Source: an uncultured Thermoplasmatales archaeon (GTDB lineage Archaea > Thermoplasmatota > E2 > UBA202 > DSCA01). Taken from it: a stretch of 64,000 nt of DNA. The stretch covers positions 11,772 to 75,771 of the forward strand of contig CAYPWJ010000005.1 in NCBI GenBank assembly GCA_964414415.1, in the 5' to 3' direction. The position numbers were made by a program, and so were the translations under genes. Shown one piece after another: positions 39,691-56,210 of this stretch (within the stretch, counting starts at the first letter, position 1; each line of letters starts with the position of its first letter). A model generated the notes under the pieces. It did not search any database. It was given only the letters and a program-made list of their open reading frames with translations, and was not told the origin of the DNA.

Positions 39691-40374
39691 ATGCACCTTC
39701 GGGCGCCTGCCAGCATGCTTTTTCTCTTCCTTGCACTGCCGCTTCTACTTATCCTGCTCATCCTTTTGTTCGTGGGCGCCATCAACGAGGTGTTCCAGAC
39801 GCTTGGGTTTCCACCCTGGGTCGCCATCGCGCTGCTCGTCGGCGTGCTCGCCGGCAGCTTCGTCAACATCCCGGTGTGGCAGATAGAGGGGCAGCAGGAG
39901 CATGTCTCCTATGACACCGCGCGGTTTCCCGTCCGACCGGTCAAACACGTCGAGAAGGGCACAACCACCATCAACCTCAACCTGGGCGGCGGCGTCATCC
40001 CCATCTGCATCTCCCTGTTTCTGCTCGTCAGGCTGCCCGCTGCCCGCTACCCGCACATCCTAGCTGCCACGGCCATCGTGGCGGCGGTGTGCTACAAGCT
40101 GGCCCGCCCTATCCGAGGGACGGGTATCGCCATGCCGGCGCTCATCCCGCCGGTGCTGGCCTCGCTGCTGGCTGTCGTGCTGGCCCCGGAGCAGGCCGCC
40201 GCGGTGGCCTTCGTGTCCGGCGTCATCGGGGTTCTCGTGGGCGCCGACCTGCTGAACCTGCCGAAGCTGGCCCATATCGGGGCAGGGGCTGCCTCAATCG
40301 GCGGTGCCGGGACGTTCGACGGCATCTTTCTCACCGGCATTCTCTCAGTGGTCCTGGTCGCGATACTACTATGA
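39691..40374 (+). CDS. integral membrane protein (DUF-type, about 6 TM)
   Basis: Hydrophobic throughout. Gly-rich C-terminal segment GAGAASIGGAGTFDGIFLTGIL. ATGA overlap with the downstream helicase. Confidence 0.5.
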   Translation: MHLRAPASMLFLFLALPLLLILLILLFVGAINEVFQTLGFPPWVAIALLVGVLAGSFVNIPVWQIEGQQEHVSYDTARFPVRPVKHVEKGTTTINLNLGGGVIPICISLFLLVRLPAARYPHILAATAIVAAVCYKLARPIRGTGIAMPALIPPVLASLLAVVLAPEQAAAVAFVSGVIGVLVGADLLNLPKLAHIGAGAASIGGAGTFDGIFLTGILSVVLVAILL

Positions 40375-43037
40375 AGGAAAAGCTGGATCACGCGCTCCGG
40401 GAGGTCATGCAACGCGAGGGGCTCGAGGAGCTCACGGAGCCGCAGCGCCGGGCGCTGCCACCACTACTCCAGGGTGACAACTGCCTCGTCATCGCGCCCA
40501 CCGGGATGGGCAAGACCGAGGCGGCGTTGATACCGCTCTTCCAGCGCCTGCTCGACGGCGGCACCTCGGCGGGCGTCAGCCTGCTCTATGTCACGCCGCT
40601 GCGGGCGCTCAACCGTGACATGCTCCGCCGGACGCTGTCCTGGGGCGAGCAGCTGGGCATCGACATCGCCGTCCGCCACGGCGACACGACGCGGAAGGAA
40701 CGGCGGCGGCAGTCGCTGCATCCACCGGACATGCTCATCACGACGCCGGAGACAGTGCAGATACTGTTCACCGGCTCCCGACTCAGGAAGAGCCTGGAGG
40801 ACGTTCGCTCCGTCGTCGTCGACGAGGTACACGAGCTTGCCGGCACCGAGCGAGGGGCACAGCTGAGCGTGGCGCTGGAGCGCATCGAGGCGCTGGCCGG
40901 CCCGGTGCAGCGGGTCGGGCTGTCCGCGACCGTCGGCTCGCCGGAGGAGGTCGCCCGGTTTTTGAGCGGCGGCGACCCCGTCGAGATAATCGAGGCGATG
41001 GGCGGCAAAGACATGGACATAGACGTGCTGCTGCCCGAGGTCACCACCAGCGATAGAAAGCGGGCTGCAGCGCTGGCAATCGATGCCAGGATGGCGGCGG
41101 TGCTCCGCGTCGTCCAGCAGATACTCAAGGAGCACGTGTCGGTGCTGCTGTTCGTCAACACCCGGGATACGGCGGAGCTGCTCGCTGCGCATCTACACGA
41201 GGTCGACGCCTCAATCGAGGTGCACCATGGCTCCCTGTCGAAGGACAGCCGCATCGCCGCGGAGGATGCATTCAAAAACGGCGAGGTGAAGGCCCTCATC
41301 TGCACCTCGTCGCTTGAACTCGGCATCGACGTCGGCCACACCGACTACGTCATCCAGTTCAACTCCCCTCGGCAGGTCACGAGGCTGGTGCAGCGCGTCG
41401 GCCGAAGCGAGCACCGTGCGGGTGCAACCGCCAGGGGCGCCGTCATCGCCACCAATCCCGAGGACTACGCCGAGGCGACGGTCATCGCCCAGCGGACCAT
41501 GCACGGCGAGCTGGAGCCGACGCGCATCCGCCGCAAACCGCTGGCGGTCCTCGCCAACCAGCTTATCTCCATCGCCATGGAGTACCGGAGCATAGAGAGC
41601 GACGCGCTGTTCAATCTGATCCACGGTGCAATGCCATTCCAGGACCTGGAGCGAGAGACGTTCGAGGCGGTGCTGGAGCAGCTCCACCGGCAGCGCATCC
41701 TGTGGTACGACGGCGACAGCGTCAACCGCAAGCGGAAATCCCGGCAGTACTTCCTCGACAACATCTCGATGATCCCCGACGAGAAAAACATCGACGTCGT
41801 CGACCTGTCCAGCAACGAGCAGATCGGGACGCTCGACGAAAGCTTCGTCGTCGACTACTGCGAGCCCGGCGCGCAGTTCATCATGCAGGGCCGGACCTGG
41901 GAGGTCGTCGAGCGCGGCGAGGTGCTCAGGGTGGCGCCGGCCGGCCGGACCAGCACGACGCCCGACTGGACGGGCGAGGAGATACCGGTCCCCTTCGAGG
42001 TCGCCCGTGCCGTCGGCGTCATGCGCCGGCGGGCTGCAGCCGGCGGGGACGTCGACGACGTCATCAGCGAGCAGGTCAGACGGCAGCAGGACGAGGGCTT
42101 TGCAGTGCCCTCCGACCAGCTGCTGACCATTGAAGTCGGCGAGGAAACCATCTACCTCTCCACGCACTTCGGCAGCCGGACCAACGAAACCGTCGGCCGG
42201 CTCGCGGCGTCGCTGCTGGCGCAACGGCTGGGACAAAGCGTCGGCATGGACAGCGACAGCTACCGCATCTACCTGCGCATCGCCCGGCCCATCCCCACCT
42301 CGCTGGTAACGGAGGTGCTGACCTCCATCGAGCCCGGCAACGTCGAAGCACTGCTCAGAGTCATCCTCCGCCGCAGCTCCTATATCCGGTGGGAGCTCGT
42401 CAAGGTCGCCCGGAAGTTCGGGGTGCTCAGCAAGGACGCCGACCCCTACCTGCTGTCGATGGAGACGCTCATGGATGTCTTCTCAGGGATGCCGCTCATG
42501 GAGGAGGTCATCGACCGCGTGATATGGGAGAAAATGGACGTCGAGCACGCGATGCAGGCGCTGCAGGAGCTCCGGGACGGCACCCTGGCGGTGGAGGAGC
42601 AGCACGTCTCGCCGATGTCACTGCAGGGTGAGTCACCAAGGGGCGAGATACTCCGGCCGGGCGACGTCGACGCGGCGGTCCTCCGCTCGCTCGAGAAGCG
42701 GCTCATGAAGGCACGGGTCACGCTACGCTGCATGAACTGCAGCCACGAGTGGCACAGCACCGTGACGCGCGCCACGCCGCAGTGCCCGCAGTGCGGGAGC
42801 CGCATGGTCGCCGTCGCCCGCGGCAGCCTCGGCAGCCGGAGTCACGACGAGCTGGTGAAGAGCGCGTCGCTGGTCGCCGAATACGGCAGGAAGGCGATGC
42901 TGACGCTGGCGGGCTACGGCGTCGGCCCACAGACGGCAGCGCGCATCCTCGGGAAGCAACTCGAGGGCAACGCCCTGCTGAAAGAGATCCTGCAGGCCGA
43001 GATAACCTACAGCCGCACCAGGGAGTTCTGGGACTAA
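40371..43037 (+). CDS. lhr: Lhr-like large DEAD/DEAH-box helicase with C-terminal zinc ribbon
   Basis: Motif I APTGMGKTE, II VVDEVHEL, III SAT, VI QRVGRSEHR. About 888 aa with a C-terminal CMNCSHEWHS...CPQCGS ribbon. The upstream 94 codons of the long ORF are Arg/Gly-rich and were rejected. Confidence 0.85.
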   Translation: MKEKLDHALREVMQREGLEELTEPQRRALPPLLQGDNCLVIAPTGMGKTEAALIPLFQRLLDGGTSAGVSLLYVTPLRALNRDMLRRTLSWGEQLGIDIAVRHGDTTRKERRRQSLHPPDMLITTPETVQILFTGSRLRKSLEDVRSVVVDEVHELAGTERGAQLSVALERIEALAGPVQRVGLSATVGSPEEVARFLSGGDPVEIIEAMGGKDMDIDVLLPEVTTSDRKRAAALAIDARMAAVLRVVQQILKEHVSVLLFVNTRDTAELLAAHLHEVDASIEVHHGSLSKDSRIAAEDAFKNGEVKALICTSSLELGIDVGHTDYVIQFNSPRQVTRLVQRVGRSEHRAGATARGAVIATNPEDYAEATVIAQRTMHGELEPTRIRRKPLAVLANQLISIAMEYRSIESDALFNLIHGAMPFQDLERETFEAVLEQLHRQRILWYDGDSVNRKRKSRQYFLDNISMIPDEKNIDVVDLSSNEQIGTLDESFVVDYCEPGAQFIMQGRTWEVVERGEVLRVAPAGRTSTTPDWTGEEIPVPFEVARAVGVMRRRAAAGGDVDDVISEQVRRQQDEGFAVPSDQLLTIEVGEETIYLSTHFGSRTNETVGRLAASLLAQRLGQSVGMDSDSYRIYLRIARPIPTSLVTEVLTSIEPGNVEALLRVILRRSSYIRWELVKVARKFGVLSKDADPYLLSMETLMDVFSGMPLMEEVIDRVIWEKMDVEHAMQALQELRDGTLAVEEQHVSPMSLQGESPRGEILRPGDVDAAVLRSLEKRLMKARVTLRCMNCSHEWHSTVTRATPQCPQCGSRMVAVARGSLGSRSHDELVKSASLVAEYGRKAMLTLAGYGVGPQTAARILGKQLEGNALLKEILQAEITYSRTREFWD

Positions 43038-43066
43038 CGTTTTAAACGCCCTGCCGTTGCCGTGGC

Positions 43067-43489
43067 ATGCAGGTCAAAAAGCAGGGCAACATCTACATCG
43101 CCAAGTTCACAGAGGGCGACGCACTCGAGAACCTCGAAGGACTGGCACAACGCTTCGATATCCGTTCCGCCGTCATCCTGTCGGGCATCGGCATGCTTGA
43201 CGAGGCATCGATCGGCTACTACGACGGCACGGAATATGCAACGACGACGCTGGAGGAACCGGCCGAACTGGTATCCATGAACGGCAACGTCGGCCGCAAG
43301 CGAGATAGCAACACCGTGGCCTGCCACCTCCACGTGGCGCTGGCACAACGCGACCACACGCTGGTGGGCGGCCACCTCATGAGCGGCAAAGTTGCCGTGG
43401 TCAACGAGATAGTGCTGCAGCGTCTCAAGCCCGGAACGATTCACCGGGTGGAAAACGAGCAGGGGCTGCTCGAGATGCAGCTCGAATGA
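43067..43489 (+). CDS. PPC/DUF296 domain protein (PD1-like DNA-binding fold)
   Basis: AVILSGIGMLDEASIGYY...HLHVALAQRDHTLVGGHLMSGKVA-VNEIVLQ matches the PPC-domain pattern. Confidence 0.7.
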   Translation: MQVKKQGNIYIAKFTEGDALENLEGLAQRFDIRSAVILSGIGMLDEASIGYYDGTEYATTTLEEPAELVSMNGNVGRKRDSNTVACHLHVALAQRDHTLVGGHLMSGKVAVVNEIVLQRLKPGTIHRVENEQGLLEMQLE

Positions 43490-44026
43490 TTATTCGAGGA
43501 ACATAGCCGCAGCCAGAACCGTCGTCCACTGACCGGGTGTACCCGTGGCAGCGGCTCCCACACTTTGGGAGTGCACGATGCGGCCGCTCATCCGGTACCG
43601 CTGCCGGCGTTCGTCCCACTGCTGCTCCGGGTCGAACTCCAGGCCGAGTGTCGTCGCCAGCATCGTCGCCGCCAGGTCTTCTGCATGATCGCCGGCCTGC
43701 CCCGCGCTTTCGTGCTCGCCGTGATACTCGGAGAGGTAGCCATACAGCGTCTCGTCGGCCGGCAGCGCCATCCCGACCGCCGCCGTGACATCGCTAGCCT
43801 CGCACGTCGTGTTTTTGGCCAGCACACAATACGTTATCTCGCCGGCGCGCAACCGCCGTTGTCCCTCCTCAAACGGGACCACCTCGCAGCCCGGAGGAAC
43901 GATGCTGGAGACCTCCACCAGGTTGCAGATGGCGACCCCGGCGTCGCGGAGCGCGAGCTCGAACGACTGCAGCCGATGCTTGTGGACGCCGGTGCCGCTT
44001 GTCAGGAAAAGCCTGGATGGACGCAT
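43490..44026 (-). CDS. pdaD: pyruvoyl-dependent arginine decarboxylase
   Basis: MRPSRLFLTSGTGVHKHRLQSFELALRDAGVAICNLVEVSSIVPPGC is the PdaD hallmark, with the Ser precursor of the pyruvoyl group in the SS region. The internal Met at 44026 was chosen. Confidence 0.85.
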   Translation of the reverse strand: MRPSRLFLTSGTGVHKHRLQSFELALRDAGVAICNLVEVSSIVPPGCEVVPFEEGQRRLRAGEITYCVLAKNTTCEASDVTAAVGMALPADETLYGYLSEYHGEHESAGQAGDHAEDLAATMLATTLGLEFDPEQQWDERRQRYRMSGRIVHSQSVGAAATGTPGQWTTVLAAAMFLE

Positions 44027-44055
44027 CGTTGTGACATGCCCACGGGATAATAAAT

Positions 44056-45060
44056 CTATCGCAGGTGCTCCGCGACGACCTGCGCGAGACCGACGACGTC
44101 TCCATGCCGTTTCAGCTGCAGGTAGCACTGCGGCGACGCGGTGACAACCGTCGCTTGTGTATCGGTCGCCGCCGCCAGCAGCCTTCGCGCCATTTCGTCC
44201 GCCATCTCTGGAAATGCCGCATGGAAGGCGAGGTCGCCGCCGCAGCAGCCGGACAGCTCGTGGTGCCCCTCGAATTCCACGAGGTCGCCAGCCCGGCCGA
44301 GCAGCTCACGGGGCGCCTCGTATACCTCCAGCTTCCGGCCCAGCACCGAGGGGTCATGGTAGAGCATCGCTCCACCCCGGGCGTCGAGCTCGACATCCTG
44401 CCGGAGCAGGAACTCGGAGAGATGCAGCAGCTCCACCTCATCAGCGAGCGGCTGCAGCGCCAGCAGACCGCTCGGGCAGCTCACCACCAGGGTGTCGATT
44501 CCGTGCGCCTCGATGCGCTCCCGTATCGCCTCAAGCCGGGTATTGTCCACGCCGATGACGTCAAGCGGGCTGCCGCAGCATCCCTCGATAACGGCAACGT
44601 CGATGTCAAGATGGTCGAAGATGGCAAGGGCCGCGCTGCGGAGCTCCGGCGCCCGATAGGTAGCGACGCAACCCGGAAAAAAACCGATGGTGCCACCGTG
44701 GCTGTCGGGGCGCTTTTCTTCACCATACACGGTGCCGTGCTCCCGGATGTGGTTCACTATCTCCTCGTGAGCAGGCAGCAACGTCGTCAAATCGCGGCGT
44801 GCCGCCTGCACGATGTCGCGTATCGGTATCTTGGAGGGACAGTCCTGCTCGCATCGGCCGCAGAGCGGGCAGCGCTGCAGCGCCTCGACCAGCGATTGGT
44901 CCTCCTCGAGCTCGCCGGTGAGGAGACCGTTAGAGAGGAAGACTTTGCCGCGGCCGCTGTCCGCCTCGGTGCCGCCGATGTCCAGCGTGGGGCAGTTCTG
45001 TTTGCAGTAGCCGCAGCCGGTGCAGCACATCAGGTCGTGTTTCAATGCTTCGAGATGCAT
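44056..45060 (-). CDS. Fe-S oxidoreductase subunit with two [4Fe-4S] motifs and CCG domains (GlcF/HdrD-like)
   Basis: CTGCGYCKQNCP and CPLCGRCEQDCP, then two Cys-rich CCG-type clusters (GCCGSP, SGCCGG). Confidence 0.85.
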   Translation of the reverse strand: MHLEALKHDLMCCTGCGYCKQNCPTLDIGGTEADSGRGKVFLSNGLLTGELEEDQSLVEALQRCPLCGRCEQDCPSKIPIRDIVQAARRDLTTLLPAHEEIVNHIREHGTVYGEEKRPDSHGGTIGFFPGCVATYRAPELRSAALAIFDHLDIDVAVIEGCCGSPLDVIGVDNTRLEAIRERIEAHGIDTLVVSCPSGLLALQPLADEVELLHLSEFLLRQDVELDARGGAMLYHDPSVLGRKLEVYEAPRELLGRAGDLVEFEGHHELSGCCGGDLAFHAAFPEMADEMARRLLAAATDTQATVVTASPQCYLQLKRHGDVVGLAQVVAEHLR

Positions 45061-45064
45061 GGTA

Positions 45065-46483
45065 TCACGGGTACCTCAGGTATTTGATGATGCTTCCCTG
45101 CCACTGCATGACCTTGCCGGGGTTCATGATGTTCTTCGGGTCGACCGCCTGCTTGATGTCGCGCATGAGCTGCAGCGTATCCCGGCGCTCCAGCTGCATC
45201 CAGGGCGCCTTGGAGATGCCGATGCCATGCTCGCCGCTGACGGTCCCCTGAAGCTCCAGGACAGCGCGATAGATGGCGTCGACCGCTGCCTCGGCGCGGT
45301 CCCAGCTGCCCTCCTCCAGAGGATTGATGAGCACCTTTGTATGGAGGTTGCCGTCGCCCGCGTGGCCATAGGTGCCGACCAGGATGTCGTGCTCGTCGGC
45401 GATCTCCTGGAATCGACGAATGGCGATGGGGATGCGGGAGATGGGGACTGACATGTCGTCGGCCAGCGAGACGGAGACGGAGTCCTCGCCGTAGCGCGAC
45501 AGCGATGGCAGCACGCTCTTGCGACCCTGCCACAGCGACGCCATCTCGTCTTCCTTGTGAGTGAAGTCGACCGTGGTGGCACCGCTCCCCCGGCAGATGT
45601 CCGCGACGGCTTCGATGTCCTCCTTGATGACCGCCTCGTCGCCGTCGACCTCGGCCAGGATGATAGCCTCGCACTCGGGCAGCCCGACACCGGTGGACTG
45701 GTTGACCGCCCGGATGCATACCTCGTCCATGATCTCCAGGCCGGAGGGCTGCAACCCGGATGCGACGACGTTTGAGATGCCCTGCCCGGCCTGCTCGAGG
45801 TCGTCGAACGAGGCGATGGCGATCGCCCGGCTCTTTGGCAGCGGCAACAACCGCAGCGTTACCTTGGTGATGACGCCGAGGGTGCCCTCGCTGCCGACCA
45901 TCAGCCGTGAGAGCTGGTAGCCAGACGAGTTCTTGATGGTCCGGGTGCCCATGTGCGCGACGGAGCCATCAGGCAGGACGACCTCGAGGCCGAGGACGTA
46001 GTCACGGGTGGCGCCGTACTTGATGGCGCGCATCCCGGAGGCGTTGCAGGCCACCATGCCGCCGATGGTGCAGACGTCGCTGCTGCCGGGCGACGGCGGG
46101 AAAAAGAAGTTCTCTGGTGCCAGCTGCTCGTTGAGCTTCGCGTATATCACGCCCGGCTCGACGACGCAGTAGAGGTCGTCGACGTTGACCTCGAGCACCC
46201 GGTCCATCGCTGACATGTCAAGCACGATGCCACCCTGTATCGGCACAGCCTGGCCTGACAGCGCGGTGCCCGACCCGCGGGCCACCACCGGCACCTCGTG
46301 CTCGTGGGCGACGGTGACGATGTCGCTCACCTGATCGGTGCTGCGGGGCTGCACGACGACGTCGGGCGTCCGATGATGGATGGAGGCATCGAATCCATAT
46401 GCATAGAGACCAGCCAGCGAGGTGATGAGCCGACCGTCGCCGACGACCTCCCGGAGCTCTTCCATGACCTGACTCGAAAGCAT
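45065..46483 (-). CDS. FAD-linked oxidase (GlcD/D-lactate dehydrogenase family)
   Basis: FAD-binding PCMH domain (VVARGSGTALSGQAVP), then EHGIG and the C-terminal FAD-oxidase_C region. It pairs with the Fe-S subunit 5 nt downstream. Confidence 0.9.
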   Translation of the reverse strand: MLSSQVMEELREVVGDGRLITSLAGLYAYGFDASIHHRTPDVVVQPRSTDQVSDIVTVAHEHEVPVVARGSGTALSGQAVPIQGGIVLDMSAMDRVLEVNVDDLYCVVEPGVIYAKLNEQLAPENFFFPPSPGSSDVCTIGGMVACNASGMRAIKYGATRDYVLGLEVVLPDGSVAHMGTRTIKNSSGYQLSRLMVGSEGTLGVITKVTLRLLPLPKSRAIAIASFDDLEQAGQGISNVVASGLQPSGLEIMDEVCIRAVNQSTGVGLPECEAIILAEVDGDEAVIKEDIEAVADICRGSGATTVDFTHKEDEMASLWQGRKSVLPSLSRYGEDSVSVSLADDMSVPISRIPIAIRRFQEIADEHDILVGTYGHAGDGNLHTKVLINPLEEGSWDRAEAAVDAIYRAVLELQGTVSGEHGIGISKAPWMQLERRDTLQLMRDIKQAVDPKNIMNPGKVMQWQGSIIKYLRYP

Positions 46484-46506
46484 GGATGGATAATATACAG
46501 GATATT

Positions 46507-47745
46507 TTAAGCGTTGCCGTCAACAGCTTGGTTCTGTCCTAAAAATTCTTGCAATCTATCTCTATTTGCCTCAGGAAATTTATCTTTATATAGCACTAAT
46601 ACTCGGTCTATTTGTGTAGCTTGGCCCTTTTTTTCATCTCCCCATATCCGACTGACTTTGTTTTCGGTGGGAAGTTTATCTTCAATGATTGAAGCAAGTT
46701 TAAACTGCGTGTGAGGAGCTACCTCTTCCCAGAGCACGTTTGCCAATTTTGTGTGTCTCTCTTCGTTTCTTTTTCCTATGTCACCGACAACGATTGCGGC
46801 CACGCCGTTATCTGCTAGCACCGACTCTATACTATGAAGGAATGTTAAGAAAAATTCGCCATAATTCCGACGGGAATATGCGTCGCTCAAACATTGGTCA
46901 ACTTTTTTTGGGTCAATATCAAGTAGCCATAGTCGAATCCAATTGTATTTCCCATATTTTATAATATTTATATAGGGAGGGGAACAAACCACCAATTTAA
47001 CGCTGTTTTTTTCAAAATATTGGTTTTGAATTGAGGGTAAATCTCTAACATCTGCCAGATATGCTTTTCCTCGATTTGCAGGCAAATCATCCTCATATAG
47101 CCTATCAAGTTTATGTCTCAAGTTGTCGAAGGCATCTAAAGGTAATTTTTTCAAATTTTTTTCTTTGATATAGTTTCTTACATAGTTGGGAGACATGCTA
47201 AAGGTGTTCGGCATACTTATGCTGAGATAACTAGAGGTGTTACCGGATTTGTGATGCTGACCGTGTAAAATTCCTGCTAAGCAAGCTAATAAGAATCTGT
47301 CAATATCATCATTTTTATCAAGATTGTTTTTCAGATATACTATCTGTTCCAAGGTGGATTCATGAAAAAGCATCGATATATCATCGGGAACACTGCGAAT
47401 GTTATCTCCCCCAAAGTTGGTAGATAGCTCTAATATTCTATCTAATGCCTCATCTTTAGTGGGGGGTTTGAGTTTAGCTTCTGTTATGAGATGCGCTAGA
47501 GGATTCAAGTCTACACCTACTCCAACTCTACCTTCAAGACATGCTTGCAAAGGGGTAGTACCACTCCCACAAAACGGGTCAAGCACAACATCTCCTTCGT
47601 CGCTAAATAATTGAATAAAGTAATGTGGAATCCTTGGAGGAAAACTTGCCATATAAGAGCACATAGAATGAAATGAGTGCCCCCATCTTTTCCGAAGTAA
47701 TCGCCAACGATTCTCATCCCACTTTGTTTTCGCCATTATATTCAC
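46507..47745 (-). CDS. DNA N6-adenine/N4-cytosine methyltransferase (N6_N4_Mtase-type motifs)
   Basis: AdoMet motif I block SFHSMCSYMASFPPRIPHYFIQLFSDEGDVVLDPFCGSGTT near the N-terminus and catalytic motif IV VVCSPPYIN about 190 aa later. Confidence 0.85.
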   Translation of the reverse strand: MNIMAKTKWDENRWRLLRKRWGHSFHSMCSYMASFPPRIPHYFIQLFSDEGDVVLDPFCGSGTTPLQACLEGRVGVGVDLNPLAHLITEAKLKPPTKDEALDRILELSTNFGGDNIRSVPDDISMLFHESTLEQIVYLKNNLDKNDDIDRFLLACLAGILHGQHHKSGNTSSYLSISMPNTFSMSPNYVRNYIKEKNLKKLPLDAFDNLRHKLDRLYEDDLPANRGKAYLADVRDLPSIQNQYFEKNSVKLVVCSPPYINIIKYGKYNWIRLWLLDIDPKKVDQCLSDAYSRRNYGEFFLTFLHSIESVLADNGVAAIVVGDIGKRNEERHTKLANVLWEEVAPHTQFKLASIIEDKLPTENKVSRIWGDEKKGQATQIDRVLVLYKDKFPEANRDRLQEFLGQNQAVDGNA

Positions 47746-50012
47746 AGATTCATGGACTCGGTGAGTCTCTCAATGGATATAAGAGAATGTATAATAGTTC
47801 TTGCGGCTCTTTGTAACTCTGACTCAAATACTTCCTCTGGTATGTCGGGGATGCCATCGGCCTCCATTTCCGGTAATTCTTCTTTTCGATAGAAGTGTTG
47901 TAACCACGCACAAAAAGCTACGTACACCGTATAGTTATCTTTGAACCGGTTTATCCATTTCTCAGAATAGCGTGATTTCTCCAGTTGCTCTTTAAAGTAA
48001 TGAAATTCCATAGAAACCAATATGTCTATTGAATCAGCCTCCTCTTTTACCTCTGCAACATTATTCTCGTCCCAACCTAACCTTTCCCACGCCGGCGTTT
48101 GTTTTGATACTCGTCTTATATTTGGAAGCGAGATTTTTCTTTTTGTCCCTTCTCCATAATCAGCTGTGGGTGGCTCTTTTACAATCCCTTTCCGTTCTTC
48201 TTTAAGTGGACTCTGATTTGGCCGGGTTAACACTGCTGTTATTGATACTTCCTCCCCTATTTCAGCTTCGTCAGATGTTTCTAAAAAGCAGCGAAGTCTT
48301 CCTCCATCAAAATAGGAATGTCCCCTAACATTTATGTGGTCTTCGGGCTCTATTAGCAACAATATTTTATTTTGTCGACTCAAATAACCATCTTCTGCAT
48401 CGCTCTCTATCTTCAATTGGGAAGAACGGCCTTTCACCAGAGGGATTGGATCTTGCTTATTTGCGATTTTTATGTAGGTGGGGATTTCCCGGGTCTCAAG
48501 AGGCTCTGGCGGGGTATAGCTTCCTCTCTTAGACGTTCCTGTCTGTGTTTTATCCCCAGAGGATGTGCCGCCTACAGTCTCGGTTTCCCCTCTAACGTAG
48601 TCAATTAATTTTCCTAATTCCTCTTTCAATTTTTGCGTTTCTTCTTCACTTGTCTCTGATAAAATCTCTTGGTGTCTTTGTTTCTCTAATGCCCTCAGAT
48701 CATCATCATTTCTTAAAGCGGTGCGGATAGCTTCCTCCATTTGATCACGGACCATACCTTTATTGAGCCTCTCACGTGTGGAACTAAATAATTCTCTCTT
48801 ACCTTTTGCAGTAAGAGTGTCACAACTTACCTCTACAATGAGATATTTTGATAAGTAGGGTAACTGTAATTTATTTCTGATAAAAGAGCGGGAAAGATAA
48901 CCATGGGTTTGCCCGTAATGAGTGAAGTAAATAGGGTGTCGTTTATCAACATAAGCCTCAACAGGATAGGACTTATCGGGATCATGCCTCAGTACCCAAT
49001 AACGGACTATCACTTTGCCATATTTTCCCGTAGGTCTTAAATTTACCTCACAGACGTCACTTTTTTCTATCAAATCACGTGGATCACTCTGCAGACGGGT
49101 ATAATTCCCAGCAATTGTCCTAGACTTAGTTTTCTTCCTATTATCCGTTACATAGACAGGCAGCACCGGATCAAATAAGGAACTTTGAATGAGCCACCAC
49201 AAACTGCCAGTAGGTGCTGTCAGAGTTGCTGAATATTTTGGAAGCTCAAAATCAATATGTTTGATGTAAGTGCCTTCAAAATTATTACCTAAACCCAACT
49301 CTGTTGGCGGAATTGTTAATACTTCATTTTCATCTGTTACAAGATACTCGTAAGTACCATTTTTGTATTTTTCTGGATCTCGTTCTCCATAACGGACGAT
49401 CGTCATACCTACCACATCTTCTGCGTCCTCCCCTAGTAAGTCGGGTGGACGGCGGGAAATAATAATTGTATATTTACTATATCTGAAAGTTGTCTGTCCT
49501 CCCTGGCCATAAGCTCCTGCTAGATATAGCTTAGTTAATTTATTACTCTCGTTTAGGCTTAAAAGAGTATTAGGAAAATCAAGCGGATGTTGCCCGACGC
49601 CTTTATCCCGAATTACCAGGGTAGGAGTTCTCCTTTTTGACCCTTTATACATTTGTATTTGGATATTATTTTTCGCCAATTTCCGTCTCTCTGTAGAGGT
49701 AAGAGTATCCAAATGCCCGGTTTTTACTCCAAACCATTCTTCTACCGCTTCCCTTGGATTATCCGGGTAGTTATCCATCTCCGGATTTTCAAGGGCAGCT
49801 CTTTCTAATATTGCATCAATGGCATTAGTGAGTCTCTCAATAAAGCCCTCCCCAGGATCTGCACCCATATTTATAACGCCAACATTGTTTTCTTTATCGC
49901 CCACCGGCCGCCATTGTAAGTTATATTTATCCTCTACTTTATTAATAAAACCCTCCATTTCGGTAGCTTCATTGATATTCAATAGTTCTTCCATCTCGCT
50001 TTCTGTAAACAT
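47742..50012 (-). CDS. large GHKL (Bergerat-fold) ATPase protein, prokaryotic MORC/paraMORC-like; C-terminal about 500 aa unassigned
   Basis: N-terminal N box GFIERLTNAIDAILERA (ExxxNxxDA), G1 box VIRDKGVGQ (DxGxG) and G2 box GAYGQGGQTTF (GxxGxG). The 4-nt overlap with the MTase suggests translational coupling. Same AT-rich codon usage. Confidence 0.7.
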   Translation of the reverse strand: MFTESEMEELLNINEATEMEGFINKVEDKYNLQWRPVGDKENNVGVINMGADPGEGFIERLTNAIDAILERAALENPEMDNYPDNPREAVEEWFGVKTGHLDTLTSTERRKLAKNNIQIQMYKGSKRRTPTLVIRDKGVGQHPLDFPNTLLSLNESNKLTKLYLAGAYGQGGQTTFRYSKYTIIISRRPPDLLGEDAEDVVGMTIVRYGERDPEKYKNGTYEYLVTDENEVLTIPPTELGLGNNFEGTYIKHIDFELPKYSATLTAPTGSLWWLIQSSLFDPVLPVYVTDNRKKTKSRTIAGNYTRLQSDPRDLIEKSDVCEVNLRPTGKYGKVIVRYWVLRHDPDKSYPVEAYVDKRHPIYFTHYGQTHGYLSRSFIRNKLQLPYLSKYLIVEVSCDTLTAKGKRELFSSTRERLNKGMVRDQMEEAIRTALRNDDDLRALEKQRHQEILSETSEEETQKLKEELGKLIDYVRGETETVGGTSSGDKTQTGTSKRGSYTPPEPLETREIPTYIKIANKQDPIPLVKGRSSQLKIESDAEDGYLSRQNKILLLIEPEDHINVRGHSYFDGGRLRCFLETSDEAEIGEEVSITAVLTRPNQSPLKEERKGIVKEPPTADYGEGTKRKISLPNIRRVSKQTPAWERLGWDENNVAEVKEEADSIDILVSMEFHYFKEQLEKSRYSEKWINRFKDNYTVYVAFCAWLQHFYRKEELPEMEADGIPDIPEEVFESELQRAARTIIHSLISIERLTESMNL

Positions 50013-50107
50013 TTGAACGACTAATGGAAAAAGCCATTAAAATAATTACGTTTTTTATACTGATAAAAAGTAACCAAAAGCATTTAACAAACAGGGTATT
50101 TCAGCCT

Positions 50108-51685: not shown

Positions 51686-52933
51686 ATGGAGAAGACGTCA
51701 CGTATCTCCGGCTTCTACAAGCTGCCGATAGAGGAGCGCATCAAAAAAGTGCAGGCCTTCGCCAGTCTCACCGACGAGGAGGCCGCGATGCTCCAGTCGA
51801 TGCATGCACTCGACGCGGACACGGCCGACCGATTGATAGAAAACGTCGTCGGGACGATGCAGCTCCCCCTCGGCATCGCAACCAATTTCACGGTCAACGG
51901 CACCGACTACCTGGTCCCCATGGCCATCGAGGAGACATCCGTCGTCGCGGCAGCGTCGAACGGGGCAAAGCGAGCGCGCGTCAAGGGGGGCTTCACCGCG
52001 AGTGCCGACGATCCGGTCATGATCGGCCAGATGCAGGTGCTCAATCCCGACGGCGACGCAGCGGAGGCCGTCATGCGCCATAAGCAGGAGATCCTGGAGC
52101 TGGCCAACGCCCAGGACAGGGTGCTCGTCAGGCTCGGCGGTGGCGCCCGTGAACTCGAGGTCCGCGACCTCGGCCACGACATGCTCGTCGTCCACCTCCA
52201 CGTCGACGTCCGCGACGCGATGGGTGCAAACGCGGTCAACACGATGGCTGAAGTGGTGGCGCCGCTCATCGAGGATGTCACCGGCGGCACCACGCGGCTG
52301 CGTATCATCTCCAACCTGGCTGACCGGCGGCTCGTTCGGGCGAAGGGCATCTTTGACAGCGAAACCATCGGCGGCGAGGGTGTCGTCGACCACATGCTGG
52401 AGGCCTACGAGTTCGCGGCCAGGGACCCGTATCGGGCGGCGACGCACAACAAGGGCGTCATGAACGGTATCGACGCGGTCGTCATCGCCACCGGCAACGA
52501 CTGGCGGGCCATCGAGGCCGGTGCCCACAGTTATGCGGCACGTGACGGCTACGGCCCGCTCACACATTATGGGAAGAACGAGGACGGCGACCTCGTCGGC
52601 TCCATCGAGCTGCCTCTCGCCATCGGGACGGTCGGCGGCACCACCCGGGTGCATCCCATGGCGCAGCTCGCCCTCAAGATCCTGGGTGTCGAGTCGGCGC
52701 AGGAACTCGCACAGGTCATCGCCTCGGTCGGGTTGGCCCAGAACTTCGCGGCGCTGCACGCGCTGGCAACGAAGGGCATCCAGCAGGGGCACATGCGCCT
52801 GCACGCCAAGAACATCGCCGTGACGGCCGGCGCAAGCGGCGACGAAATCGATGAGGTGGCACGGCGGATGGTCGACGAGGATGCTGTCAGGACGGACCGC
52901 GCCGAGGAGATACTGGAGGAACTTCGCTCCTGA
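51686..52933 (+). CDS. hmgA: 3-hydroxy-3-methylglutaryl-CoA reductase, class I
   Basis: Catalytic regions EETSVVAAASNGAK, DAMGANAVNTM and GTVGG...HMRLHA (catalytic His). Confidence 0.9.
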   Translation: MEKTSRISGFYKLPIEERIKKVQAFASLTDEEAAMLQSMHALDADTADRLIENVVGTMQLPLGIATNFTVNGTDYLVPMAIEETSVVAAASNGAKRARVKGGFTASADDPVMIGQMQVLNPDGDAAEAVMRHKQEILELANAQDRVLVRLGGGARELEVRDLGHDMLVVHLHVDVRDAMGANAVNTMAEVVAPLIEDVTGGTTRLRIISNLADRRLVRAKGIFDSETIGGEGVVDHMLEAYEFAARDPYRAATHNKGVMNGIDAVVIATGNDWRAIEAGAHSYAARDGYGPLTHYGKNEDGDLVGSIELPLAIGTVGGTTRVHPMAQLALKILGVESAQELAQVIASVGLAQNFAALHALATKGIQQGHMRLHAKNIAVTAGASGDEIDEVARRMVDEDAVRTDRAEEILEELRS

Positions 52934-53746: not shown

Positions 53747-53861
53747 GCACGTCTCCGGCGGATAATAAATGCACGTATAAACCATATAAAAATAATCCGA
53801 ATATTTATAAACAAGTATTACATTCATTATATGAACGCTCACAAAATGGGAGGTGCAAAAT

Positions 53862-56210
53862 ATGATAAAAATTGCAGCATCCTGCATGGCCGCCGTTCTG
53901 CTCCTGTCCCTCTGCGCAGCTCCGAGCACCATACAGGGCGATGATTCATCCGGCATTCATGGCGGCAGATACGATAGAGTCCAGGTTGCAGACAGCGGCG
54001 ACGGCGACACACTCTACGTCGGCGGCTCCGGAACCGGCAACTACACCACGATACAGGCGGCGGTAACAGCCGCAAAAGACGGAGACACCGTCTTTGTCTA
54101 CGATGACTCATCTCCATATTATGAGAACGTGGTGGTGCAGAAATCCATCCAGCTGGAAGGAGAAAACAGGCATTCCACCGTCGTAATCGGGGTACTAAAT
54201 ACGCCGACGATTGTAATCGCTGCTGACGATGTCATCCTGTGCAGGGTTACTGTCCACCACACGCAGCGAAGTCCATTTCGAAGCGAAAGCGACGGCGTGT
54301 CCATTCGAGGTGCCAACGTAACCATCCAGAATAACTACATCTCTGAAAACTGGAACCACGGCATATCAGTCAGAGGTGCCTCCAGCGTCCGCATCGTGGA
54401 CAACGAAATCAACCGCAACATATGGGTCAACATCTACATGGCTGATGCAACGGATGCCATCATTGCAAACAACACCATCGTCCGAGCCAAGCTGAACGTG
54501 CTGCTTCGCGGCGCTTCACACAATACCATCAGCTCCAACGTCATCGGCCACTCCAACGGCCTCCACATGGATGGTGCATCAAGCCATAACAGCATCGTCG
54601 CCAACACCTTCGAAAACTGCGGAGACAGCATCACGATGCGCGACGGCTGCAGCGACAACCGCATATCAGACAACCGCATCACCGAGAGCTCCAGGATCGG
54701 AGTTATAATCCACGAGGGATGCCTCCGCAACACCGCGAGGAACAACACGTTCACGAGGACGACCATAGGGATAGAATGCCGTTCGCCGAGCACGATAGAA
54801 AAAAATACATTTACCCGGAGCGGCATACGCATTTTTTCGAAAGGCAACAGAGTGGAAGGCAACACCGCCAACGGCAAACCGATTATCTATCTGGAAAACC
54901 GTTCACACGTCGCGGTGAATGAATCTCCCGGACAAGTCATCCTCATATGCTGCGACAACGTCACTATCGACAACCATACGATAGCGAACACGAGCGTGGG
55001 CGTACAACTCTGGCATTCCCGCTACTGCAGCATTGCAAACACCACGTGTACCGGAAACACCGTCGGCATCCACATCGGTTCATCCAGCCACATCCATGTC
55101 GCTGACAATGTCCTCCAAGACAACGAAAACGCTCTGCATATACAGGGGACACAGAACACCGTAGCCCATAACCAGCTTCTATCAAACATGGACGGCATCT
55201 GGCTTGGCTACAGCAGCAACAACAGCATCCAAGACAACCATGTAGCCAACACCCGATACACCGGCATCGACCTCTACGATTCATCCGAAAACAGGATAGA
55301 AAACAACACTCTGATCGATGGGTTCTACGGCATCCACGTGAGGTATTCCTCAAACAATCGTTTCCTCTATAACGTGTTCAAAAGCAATAGCGAAGGTATA
55401 TCGCTCGACAGTGGCACCAGCAACGTTATCGTACATAACGCTCTCTACGATGACGGGCTGCGCGTCCGTCAGGTGGCATCGCTCCGCTCTAACGTCATCA
55501 GAAACAATACCGTGAACGACAAACCGCTTGTCTTGTGGGAGGAAAAAACAGATGAAATCCTGCCTGACGTGGGTCAGGCCATCCTCGTCGGGTGCAGCAA
55601 CGTCACCCTCCGCAACCAGACTATATCAGACACGACAACCGCCGTAACGCTCTGGAATTGCACTAATTGCAGGATTTCTAGCTGCGACATATATGCCAAC
55701 AGCGACGCTGGGATAGAACTACACACATCATCCTGCAACGTCATCCACGACAACCAGCTCCACTCCAACCGATACGGCATCAGACTCTACGACTCCTCCT
55801 CAAACGATATTTCGGGGAACACCCTGTTAGCCGGAGGGTTGCTTATCTCTCGGTCAGACGAAAACCTTGTTAGCGGCAACCGTTTCTCTGCAAACGAGAG
55901 AGCTGTATCTATCGATGCTTCGTCCGGCAACCGCCTCAAAGACAACATCTTCTCCGAGAACAACAACGCAATGGTGGTAGCCCAGAGCAACGGCAACCAT
56001 ATCCATCGCAACGACTTCATAGATAACGAGAACGACGTCATCCTCTACTCATTCCACAACCTCTGGACGAGAAACTACTGGGATACCTGGCACATGGCAG
56101 CCCCGAAGCCGATACTCGGGCATCTCGGGCAGGGAATCCTGACAAACCTCCCGTGGCTAAACGTCGACTGGTGCCCACGGCTTATGCCGCAGGAGGCCGA
56201 CACCGGATGA
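53862..56210 (+). CDS. secreted right-handed parallel beta-helix repeat protein (NosD/PbH1-like)
   Basis: Signal peptide MIKIAASCMAAVLLLSLCAAPS. Many about 22-aa beta-helix coils with N-x-I/V-x-x-N patterns (e.g. IQNNYISENWNHGISVRGAS). C-terminal NYWDTWHMAAPKPILGH...NVDWCPRLMP motif. Confidence 0.75.
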   Translation: MIKIAASCMAAVLLLSLCAAPSTIQGDDSSGIHGGRYDRVQVADSGDGDTLYVGGSGTGNYTTIQAAVTAAKDGDTVFVYDDSSPYYENVVVQKSIQLEGENRHSTVVIGVLNTPTIVIAADDVILCRVTVHHTQRSPFRSESDGVSIRGANVTIQNNYISENWNHGISVRGASSVRIVDNEINRNIWVNIYMADATDAIIANNTIVRAKLNVLLRGASHNTISSNVIGHSNGLHMDGASSHNSIVANTFENCGDSITMRDGCSDNRISDNRITESSRIGVIIHEGCLRNTARNNTFTRTTIGIECRSPSTIEKNTFTRSGIRIFSKGNRVEGNTANGKPIIYLENRSHVAVNESPGQVILICCDNVTIDNHTIANTSVGVQLWHSRYCSIANTTCTGNTVGIHIGSSSHIHVADNVLQDNENALHIQGTQNTVAHNQLLSNMDGIWLGYSSNNSIQDNHVANTRYTGIDLYDSSENRIENNTLIDGFYGIHVRYSSNNRFLYNVFKSNSEGISLDSGTSNVIVHNALYDDGLRVRQVASLRSNVIRNNTVNDKPLVLWEEKTDEILPDVGQAILVGCSNVTLRNQTISDTTTAVTLWNCTNCRISSCDIYANSDAGIELHTSSCNVIHDNQLHSNRYGIRLYDSSSNDISGNTLLAGGLLISRSDENLVSGNRFSANERAVSIDASSGNRLKDNIFSENNNAMVVAQSNGNHIHRNDFIDNENDVILYSFHNLWTRNYWDTWHMAAPKPILGHLGQGILTNLPWLNVDWCPRLMPQEADTG

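Follow-up and report, generated by a model that had tools for sequence, protein, structure and literature searches.

A methyltransferase-linked GHKL ATPase from a Thermoplasmatales archaeon with a family-specific C-terminal module and no recognizable nuclease

The stretch of DNA considered here (the window; 64,000 nucleotides of contig CAYPWJ010000005.1 from an uncultured Thermoplasmatales archaeon) contains, at 47742..50012 on the minus strand, an open reading frame (ORF) for a protein of 756 residues. This protein is a GHKL ATPase with intact motifs that is linked to a DNA methyltransferase, and its C-terminal ~260 residues constitute a family-specific module that is not explained by any of the sequence libraries searched. 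The tail contains no recognizable nuclease, with the limit that a search by fold alone cannot exclude a novel catalytic site.

A preliminary description of the window had attributed only the first ~230 residues to the ATPase fold and had suggested that the remainder, represented by positions 47742-49400 (residues ~205-756), contains a novel effector, possibly a nuclease. The reading frame of 756 residues and both of the peptides quoted from it, SGDKTQTGTSKRGSYTPPEPLE and WLQHFYRKEELPEMEADGIPDIPEEVFESELQ, are present in the translation. Our own reading, on which our judgment is evenly divided, is that this uncharacterized, paraMORC-like ATPase with GHKL and S5 domains would be the restriction-side partner in a mobile two-gene cassette resembling a restriction-modification (R-M) system, and that it would act as an ATP-gated dimeric DNA clamp with a non-nuclease tail.

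Domain architecture and the C-terminal tail

More than 421 relatives of the 756-residue protein were recovered by a word-indexed search (E <= 1e-3), most of them 740-890 residues in length, matching over approximately the whole query at 30-40% identity and carrying no Pfam annotation. Conservation was judged on an alignment of 62 relatives, in which N43, E59, R60, T62, N63, D66, P86, R87, G99, P130, D136, G138, G140, K158, G166, G169, G171, G172, G247, P282, R292, G302, L307, W339, G367, Q368 and R413 are invariant. Every invariant residue falls within 43-413, and none lies past 413. The GHKL motifs occur in canonical order, as E59-x3-N63-x2-D66 (ExxxNxxD), D136-x-G-x-G140 (DxGxG), the glycine-rich lid G166..G169-x-G171-G172, and G247-T248 (GT), whose two residues are invariant or 96% conserved; another 14 loci likewise preserve the ATPase motifs intact. 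Pfam makes no domain call in the window protein, and only weak matches to HATPase_c_3 or HATPase_c appear, in 11 of the 62 relatives. Despite this weak detection, the assignment as a GHKL ATPase made in the preliminary description is borne out, motifs I-IV being invariant in the family. Since all of the invariant residues match either GHKL motifs I-IV or the S5 domain, we count them toward an action as a clamp.

An AlphaFold2 model of the full-length protein, built with the 62-sequence alignment, is confident (mean predicted local distance difference test score [pLDDT] 88.1, predicted template-modeling score 0.86), and the only stretches of low confidence are 476-496, around 619-625, and 716-720. 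The domains along the protein are as follows:

49209..50012, minus strand (residues 1-268): strap helices and GHKL (Bergerat-fold) ATP-binding domain, with motifs I-IV
48753..49208, minus strand (residues 269-420): S5-fold transducer, the second half of the ATPase module, holding the invariant P282, R292, G302, W339, G367-Q368 and R413
48588..48752, minus strand (residues 421-475): three-helix arm after the transducer, from the AlphaFold2 model
48513..48587, minus strand (residues 476-500): disordered linker, with pLDDT below 50 for 476-496
48138..48512, minus strand (residues 501-625): immunoglobulin (Ig)-like beta-sandwich, whose PT(F/Y)I, ESDAPD and GGRxR loops are conserved
47745..48137, minus strand (residues 626-756): acidic, family-specific three-stranded alpha/beta unit and helical hairpin, from the AlphaFold2 secondary structure

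Both the alpha/beta sandwich of the Bergerat fold and the S5-fold transducer that directly follows it are present in the model, and structure comparison extends the ATPase module (GHKL plus S5) to about residue 420. Among the closest structures, each with the two values returned by the comparison, were:

SMCHD1 ATPase module: 18.6; 315
MORC3: 18.3; 282
TRAP1: 17.9; 329
MORC2: 16.0; 310
E. coli MutL N-terminal domain (MutL-NTD): 15.6; 273 of 331
ParE 43K: 15.3; 281
Topo VI-B: 14.8; 302

At the sequence level, identity to the ATPase modules of eukaryotic MORC2, MORC3 and SMCHD1 is 10-13%. Residues 231-420, which had been placed outside the ATPase fold, are the S5/transducer of the ATPase module, and some 190 residues are thereby reassigned. 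What stands of the unassigned C-terminal region described earlier is its last ~260 residues, which are family-specific and match no library.

Past the transducer, the arm consists of helices 420-433, 437-451 and 456-474 (pLDDT about 82-95), within which D436 and R446 are near-invariant. The linker that follows had been called KR-rich, a label that does not suit it: its 22 residues include three basic and three acidic ones for a net charge of 0, it is predicted to be disordered, and it has 11% identity across relatives. The acidity ascribed to the C-terminus is, by contrast, confirmed, the terminal subdomain having a net charge of -8 in the window protein and a mean of -7 across the 62 relatives. 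Its hairpin is modeled as two helices of ~30 residues at the very end of the protein. Altogether, the tail is the least conserved part of the protein, with ~30% identity across relatives as compared to 43% for the ATPase module.

Neither a fold nor a family membership nor catalytic residues of a nuclease of any familiar kind were detected in the tail. The 756-residue protein had no significant match in Pfam (only DUF5104 and baeRF, both below threshold) and none in NCBIfam, PADLOC or the sequences of the PDB, the last searched with the single sequence and with a 62-sequence profile; a Pfam scan of the 62 aligned relatives yielded no nuclease family, and a profile of the terminal subdomain retrieved nothing above noise from PDB sequences or Pfam. 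Structure comparison revealed no PD-(D/E)xK, HNH, PLD, GIY-YIG, MutL-type or other nuclease fold. At the level of motifs, the MutL endonuclease signature DQHA(X)2E(X)4E occurs in 0 of the 62 relatives, HxH is found nowhere in the window protein and no histidine is conserved in the tail, and neither a conserved pattern resembling PD-(D/E)xK nor a DUF4263 signal was found in the family. The single ExxxH candidate near the expected position, E443..H447, lies in the helical arm, and neither of its residues reaches 80% conservation. There is no TIR match in the window protein or its neighbors. Among the 62 relatives, no residue of the tail is invariant, acidic residues and histidines included. The structure prediction and fold comparison that the preliminary description had proposed as a check returned essentially S5/transducer and putative dimerization-type domains and no effector-like fold, and its suggestion of a nuclease or effector module within residues ~230-756 is not upheld.

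There are conserved loops in the tail, including D538 of ESDAPD (91%) and G571 of GGRxR (98%). In relatives of 845-890 residues, the linker (476-500 in the window protein) is replaced by another Ig-like domain in tandem with the first, in which the motifs reappear as PT(F/Y)L and E-x-D-G-P-D; these two-Ig variants are P0087, P0090, P0091, P0093, P0099, P0107 and P0115. Because the ESDAPD and GGRxR loops both recur in the duplicated Ig-like domain, they are more likely to be structural. One further candidate, a DNRH sequence in a beta-beta-alpha element that resembles the DRGH of Serratia-type nucleases, was dropped: it is confined to one clade, the closest, its counterpart in the window protein is MEFHY, and in other clades the position reads ENHH, DHIK, SNRD, GNKW and so forth. 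The tail module is used nowhere outside of the family: in a phmmer search of 1.84 billion representatives, its 176 clusters always formed the C-terminus of proteins of 740-900 residues or of fragments, and no other architecture reused it.

Linkage to DNA methyltransferases and spread of the family

Directly downstream of the ATPase gene is a second ORF on the same strand:

46507..47745, minus strand: adjacent DNA methyltransferase (PF01555; PADLOC MTase_II PDLC03325), whose orthologue adjoins the ATPase gene in 47 related loci

Its start either overlaps the stop codon of the ATPase gene or lies at most 6 nt from it, and the enzyme has 409-412 residues (409 by the gene call of the public contig). 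It matches PF01555 of Pfam (E 7e-19) and, over nearly its full length, the PADLOC model MTase_II PDLC03325 (E 6e-37), and its motif I (DPFCGSGTT) precedes motif IV (SPPY).

This association extends across the family. A methyltransferase is adjacent or within 2-4 kb in ~67 of 84 loci, and six more loci are cut by contig ends. The partner enzymes are drawn from at least four families. By neighbor clustering, 47 loci have an adjacent methyltransferase that is orthologous to that of the window, of the alpha-type N6/N4 class and mostly directly downstream on the same strand; a beta-type N6/N4 methyltransferase lies directly upstream in 11 loci, with L064 as one more. The remaining partners are C5 methylases (three loci), a D12 enzyme (one locus) and a convergent N6/N4 methylase (one locus), and in two loci the methyltransferase is 2-4 kb distant. 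At one locus (L036:4768-8232, plus strand), a single ORF of 1154 residues encodes a beta-type N6/N4 methyltransferase (its PF01555 match spanning residues 122-374) and, fused to it in frame, a full-length GHKL homologue. This fusion argues for a physical methyltransferase-ATPase complex, with the caveat that it comes from a long-read metagenome-assembled genome (MAG) in which a frameshift artifact at the normally overlapping junction is possible. Pairwise distances for the ATPase module and for the methyltransferase are tightly correlated (Spearman 0.87-0.92), as would be expected if the cassette is co-inherited.

Nine loci, from Eremiobacterota and Chloroflexota, have no methyltransferase within ~6 kb. 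These copies retain intact ORFs with all of the ATPase motifs, except for one that is cut at a contig start; the intact ones (L019, L030, L048 and L058 in Eremiobacterota; L076, L078, L079 and L081 in Chloroflexota) represent an unusual situation for a restriction gene. Solitary copies that remain intact fit more readily with a protein whose action is something other than that of an unconditional nuclease.

At two loci (L059:5926-8780 and L060:5950-8967), the homologues, of 669 and 577 residues, are truncated after or within the Ig-like domain and are followed 3-45 nt on by a gene for a PLD-family nuclease (PLDc_2 / RE_NgoFVII, NgoFVII-like), which in L060 also has an Mrr_N domain. The latter locus keeps a 142-residue remnant of its cognate methyltransferase. 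These arrangements may be either a variant with the nuclease in trans or a rearranged cassette. We considered whether these genes point to the tail as an effector slot, and gave this argument reduced weight since the methyltransferase remnant suggests rearrangement.

Additional genes accompany the cassette at a few loci, none of them with a Pfam match. A protein of 340 residues is encoded upstream in two archaeal loci (L020:4991-6001 and L063:4983-6002) and one of ~410 residues downstream in loci with C5 methylases (L067:8225-9475 and L070:2764-3990), and a protein of 163 residues, with two hydrophobic helices and a helical tail, is encoded downstream at L071:8364-8855 and L075:8346-8834. Neither the cassette of the window nor most of the related loci have a third conserved gene.

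In a set of 80 loci from GTDB species genomes together with metagenome loci, the hosts are diverse, the bacterial ones being Acidobacteriota, Myxococcota, Bacteroidota, Pseudomonadota, Chloroflexota, Eremiobacterota, Gemmatimonadota, Bacillota and one genome of the candidate phyla radiation (CPR), and the archaeal ones Methanoregulaceae, Methanocella and Thaumarchaeota. There is no homologue in phage genomes, and plasmids carry only distant relatives annotated as 'hypothetical'. Wherever members of the family are named, they are named 'hypothetical protein'; the family has no Pfam model, and our literature search found no publication on it.

Among the distant relatives (22-28% identity, 780-820 residues, 'hypothetical') are those from a Rhodococcus plasmid (L092), Devosia (L093), Ensifer (L089) and Hymenobacter (L090). 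Their neighbors include genes for DndB, PAPS-reductase-family, DUF4007, cysteine-desulfurase-like, SIR2 and DUF262 proteins, which is the context of a defense island. In the wider superfamily, partners may include DNA modification systems other than methylation.

Mode of action

The classic mark of a restriction partner is linkage to methyltransferases of several unrelated families, and we read the ATPase as the restriction side of the cassette. By analogy with Hsp90 and MutL, the C-terminal hairpin domain could join two subunits constitutively, and ATP binding would then bring their N-terminal GHKL domains together as a dimer, so that a ring closes on DNA in the manner of MORC proteins, MutL and type II topoisomerases. 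The Ig-like and C-terminal module may engage DNA, the methyltransferase or both, and methylation by the partner enzyme would prevent productive engagement on host DNA; any cleavage would come from an unrecognized site or from a partner, and not from a canonical nuclease domain. Taken alone, the notion that the protein acts without cutting, with ATP-dependent clamping or entrapment blocking replication and transcription, is the one that we favor for the inactivation of unmodified DNA, although by itself it is possible and not probable. A nuclease-free, two-gene analogue of R-M systems, in which a MORC-like, dimeric ATP-gated clamp would topologically entrap or compact unmethylated incoming DNA and thereby silence it while the methyltransferase exempts host DNA, is in our view doubtful.

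Several considerations weigh against our reading of the ATPase as a clamp with a non-nuclease tail. An activity that damages DNA is to be expected in a cassette of the R-M type, and none is assigned here; that no known fold was seen counts as negative evidence alone. No domain of the protein is consistently basic. If the tail contacted the methyltransferase or dictated DNA specificity, we might expect the two to co-vary; the Ig-like and terminal subdomains show no excess co-variation with the variable middle region of the methyltransferase (partial correlations of -0.38 to +0.16 with the ATPase module controlled, from pairs that are not phylogenetically independent), and a role for the tail in specificity or in methyltransferase contact therefore gains no positive support. 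And finally, we know of no two-gene restriction system that is non-nucleolytic.

The closest precedents are the GHKL ATPases of the MORC and paraMORC groups, which Iyer, Abhiman & Aravind (2008) predicted to act in R-M systems (PMC2292703). Genes of both groups work with separate nucleases and helicases, and a minority of the neighborhoods have methylases or restriction endonucleases alone, with no helicase (PMC2292703); the biochemistry of the prokaryotic MORC-type proteins has been described as poorly understood (PMC2292703; PMC8011034). The present family resembles them in its N-terminal GHKL and S5 domains with intact ATP motifs, its family-specific C-terminal extension, its patchy and laterally mobile occurrence in bacteria and archaea, and the DNA methylases in its neighborhoods. 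It differs from MORC proteins in the sense of that 2008 study in that the S5 motif GhXhhpXXRhl is found in 0 of 62 members by regular-expression search, and from paraMORC3, paraMORC4 and paraMORC5 in lacking their restriction endonuclease (RE)-fold (E-D-ExK; DUF4263), TIR and HxH C-terminal domains. The ExxxH of paraMORC2 is not conserved here, a typical locus has no superfamily II (SF-II) helicase, Vsr or RE-fold gene, and the tail is instead composed of an Ig-like sandwich and an acidic domain with a helical hairpin. The description of paraMORC1, which is all that we compared, is compatible with the present family, and neither a MORC nor an HNH gene is a recurrent neighbor here. One member of the family (L032) is from L. 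blandensis, a species that is also represented in the alignment of PMC2292703.

Unlike eukaryotic MORC2, MORC3 and SMCHD1, the present protein lacks CW, chromo-like, coiled-coil-insert and SMC-hinge domains and has as its partner a prokaryotic DNA methyltransferase of the same operon; unlike MutL, the family lacks the endonuclease motif and resides in a mobile methyltransferase cassette and not among repair genes. The GHKL-Shedu protein VcSduA of Vibrio cholerae (a paraMORC3), whose anti-phage role is proven and requires the ATPase glutamate (PMC12137116), likewise combines an N-terminal GHKL ATPase, a clamp-like middle and a C-terminal module in one polypeptide, but it ends in a DUF4263 PD-(D/E)xK nuclease and acts without a methyltransferase, whereas the present protein is methyltransferase-linked and has no such signal. 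As in Type III R-M systems (Mod and Res), the cassette is a two-gene operon of a methyltransferase and an ATP-using partner that are tightly co-inherited; Res, however, combines an ATPase that resembles SF-II helicases with a PD-(D/E)xK nuclease, and the present ATPase is of the GHKL type with no recognizable nuclease.

The view taken in the preliminary description, that the Ig-like and terminal module (~501-756) itself damages DNA, as a novel nuclease or another effector whose fold lies outside those of known nucleases, is one that we consider unlikely. It would account for the fact that the module is family-specific and unexplained, and it draws force from the two-gene organization, which implies that any effector must sit in the ATPase protein, as well as from the acidic and basic residues of the conserved tail loops around D538 and G571. 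The PLD-family genes behind the truncated homologues of L059 and L060 could even mean that tail and nuclease are interchangeable, although the methyltransferase remnant of L060 suggests that these loci may be decayed or rearranged. Against an effector in the tail stand the lack of any invariant residue in the module, the reappearance of ESDAPD and GGR where the Ig domain is duplicated, the absence of DNRH from the window protein and several clades, and the strong acidity of the terminal domain. Cleavage might instead arise from a cryptic site within the GHKL/S5 module, or from a composite one assembled where the subunits meet upon ATP-dependent dimerization, with the tail serving only in DNA binding or dimerization. 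Plant MORC1/CRT1 has been reported to have endonuclease activity without a defined nuclease domain, and residues 1-440 of the family contain near-invariant polar positions outside of the GHKL motifs (N43, R87, K158, K161, R187, K217, Y221, Y223, H252, D281, R292, R298, Y354, D398, R413 and D436). Judging from motif order, most of these probably occupy lid, strap and transducer positions typical of GHKL and S5 ATPases, and the sequence has no evident cluster of acidic residues and histidines of the sort typical of metal-dependent nucleases; we give this proposal little credence as well.

Two other explanations dispense with a nuclease in the protein altogether. As E. coli MutL does with MutH, the ATPase could serve as a sensor or matchmaker that detects unmethylated DNA and activates a nuclease or other effector whose gene lies at another site or, at some loci, alongside. 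The presence of MutL-NTD among the closest structures, the separate nucleases and helicases described for MORC and paraMORC genes (PMC2292703), and the extra conserved genes of some loci (the PLD nuclease of L059 and L060, and the 410-residue, 340-residue and 163-residue proteins of L067 and L070, L020 and L063, and L071 and L075) all fit such a role; but a cassette that moves between bacteria, CPR and archaea is not likely to depend on a host-specific effector, and most loci, that of the window included, lack a third conserved gene, making this explanation quite unlikely. It would be very improbable, in our estimation, that restriction is not involved at all and that the ATPase either assists or regulates the methyltransferase (in ATP-dependent loading or the control of methylation, for example) or is a methylation-linked chromatin protein. 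The in-frame fusion at L036, the tight co-divergence with the methyltransferase, the failure to find a nuclease and the intact solitary copies could each be cited on its behalf. Partnership with methyltransferases of at least four unrelated families is, however, the pattern of a restriction partner and not that of a dedicated cofactor, and the island-like, patchy, cross-domain distribution, along with the defense-island neighbors of distant relatives, points to conflict systems.

Of interest here is a family that is widespread across bacteria, CPR and archaea without a Pfam model or annotation. It represents a minimal case, with one ATPase and one methyltransferase, occasionally as one fused polypeptide, and neither a helicase nor a recognizable nuclease. 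If the family restricts DNA, then either its catalytic site is of a new kind or it does not cut, and both outcomes would be informative for the biology of defense systems and for the origin of eukaryotic MORC function. Were the protein to act by entrapment, it would be a prokaryotic antecedent of the methylation-linked silencing by eukaryotic MORC and SMCHD1; were an ordinary divergent nuclease present, the family would be just another group of ATP-dependent restriction enzymes.

The low-GC island and its surroundings

The two genes form an island of distinct base composition, with 41-45% guanine plus cytosine (GC) as compared to ~62% in its flanks:

46484..50107, no strand assigned: low-GC two-gene island, from the composition profile and the gene content of the public contig

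On the public MAG contig (GCA_905333555.1), the island is flanked by a glcD-like FAD oxidase gene and a gene for class I lysyl-tRNA synthetase, its edges lying within ~25 nt of the upstream end of the former and ~95 nt from the start called for the latter. No integrase, tRNA, convincing flanking repeats or att sites were found at its borders, and an Rfam scan of the window gave no match. The genes around the island include, besides the class I synthetase, those for HMG-CoA reductase and pyruvoyl arginine decarboxylase, a set that appears archaeal.

Two further features of the window were noted. Many long ORFs, antisense to the real genes or in a different frame, overlie them, particularly at 40000-46500; these are artifacts of high GC content and not genes (e.g., 40464-41192, 41211-42236 and 51698-52804). 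At 53853-56210 and beyond, on the plus strand, a 785-residue ORF in a region of 52% GC encodes a large, secreted-looking protein with NosD/beta-helix repeats, which is followed on the public contig by a second beta-helix repeat gene.

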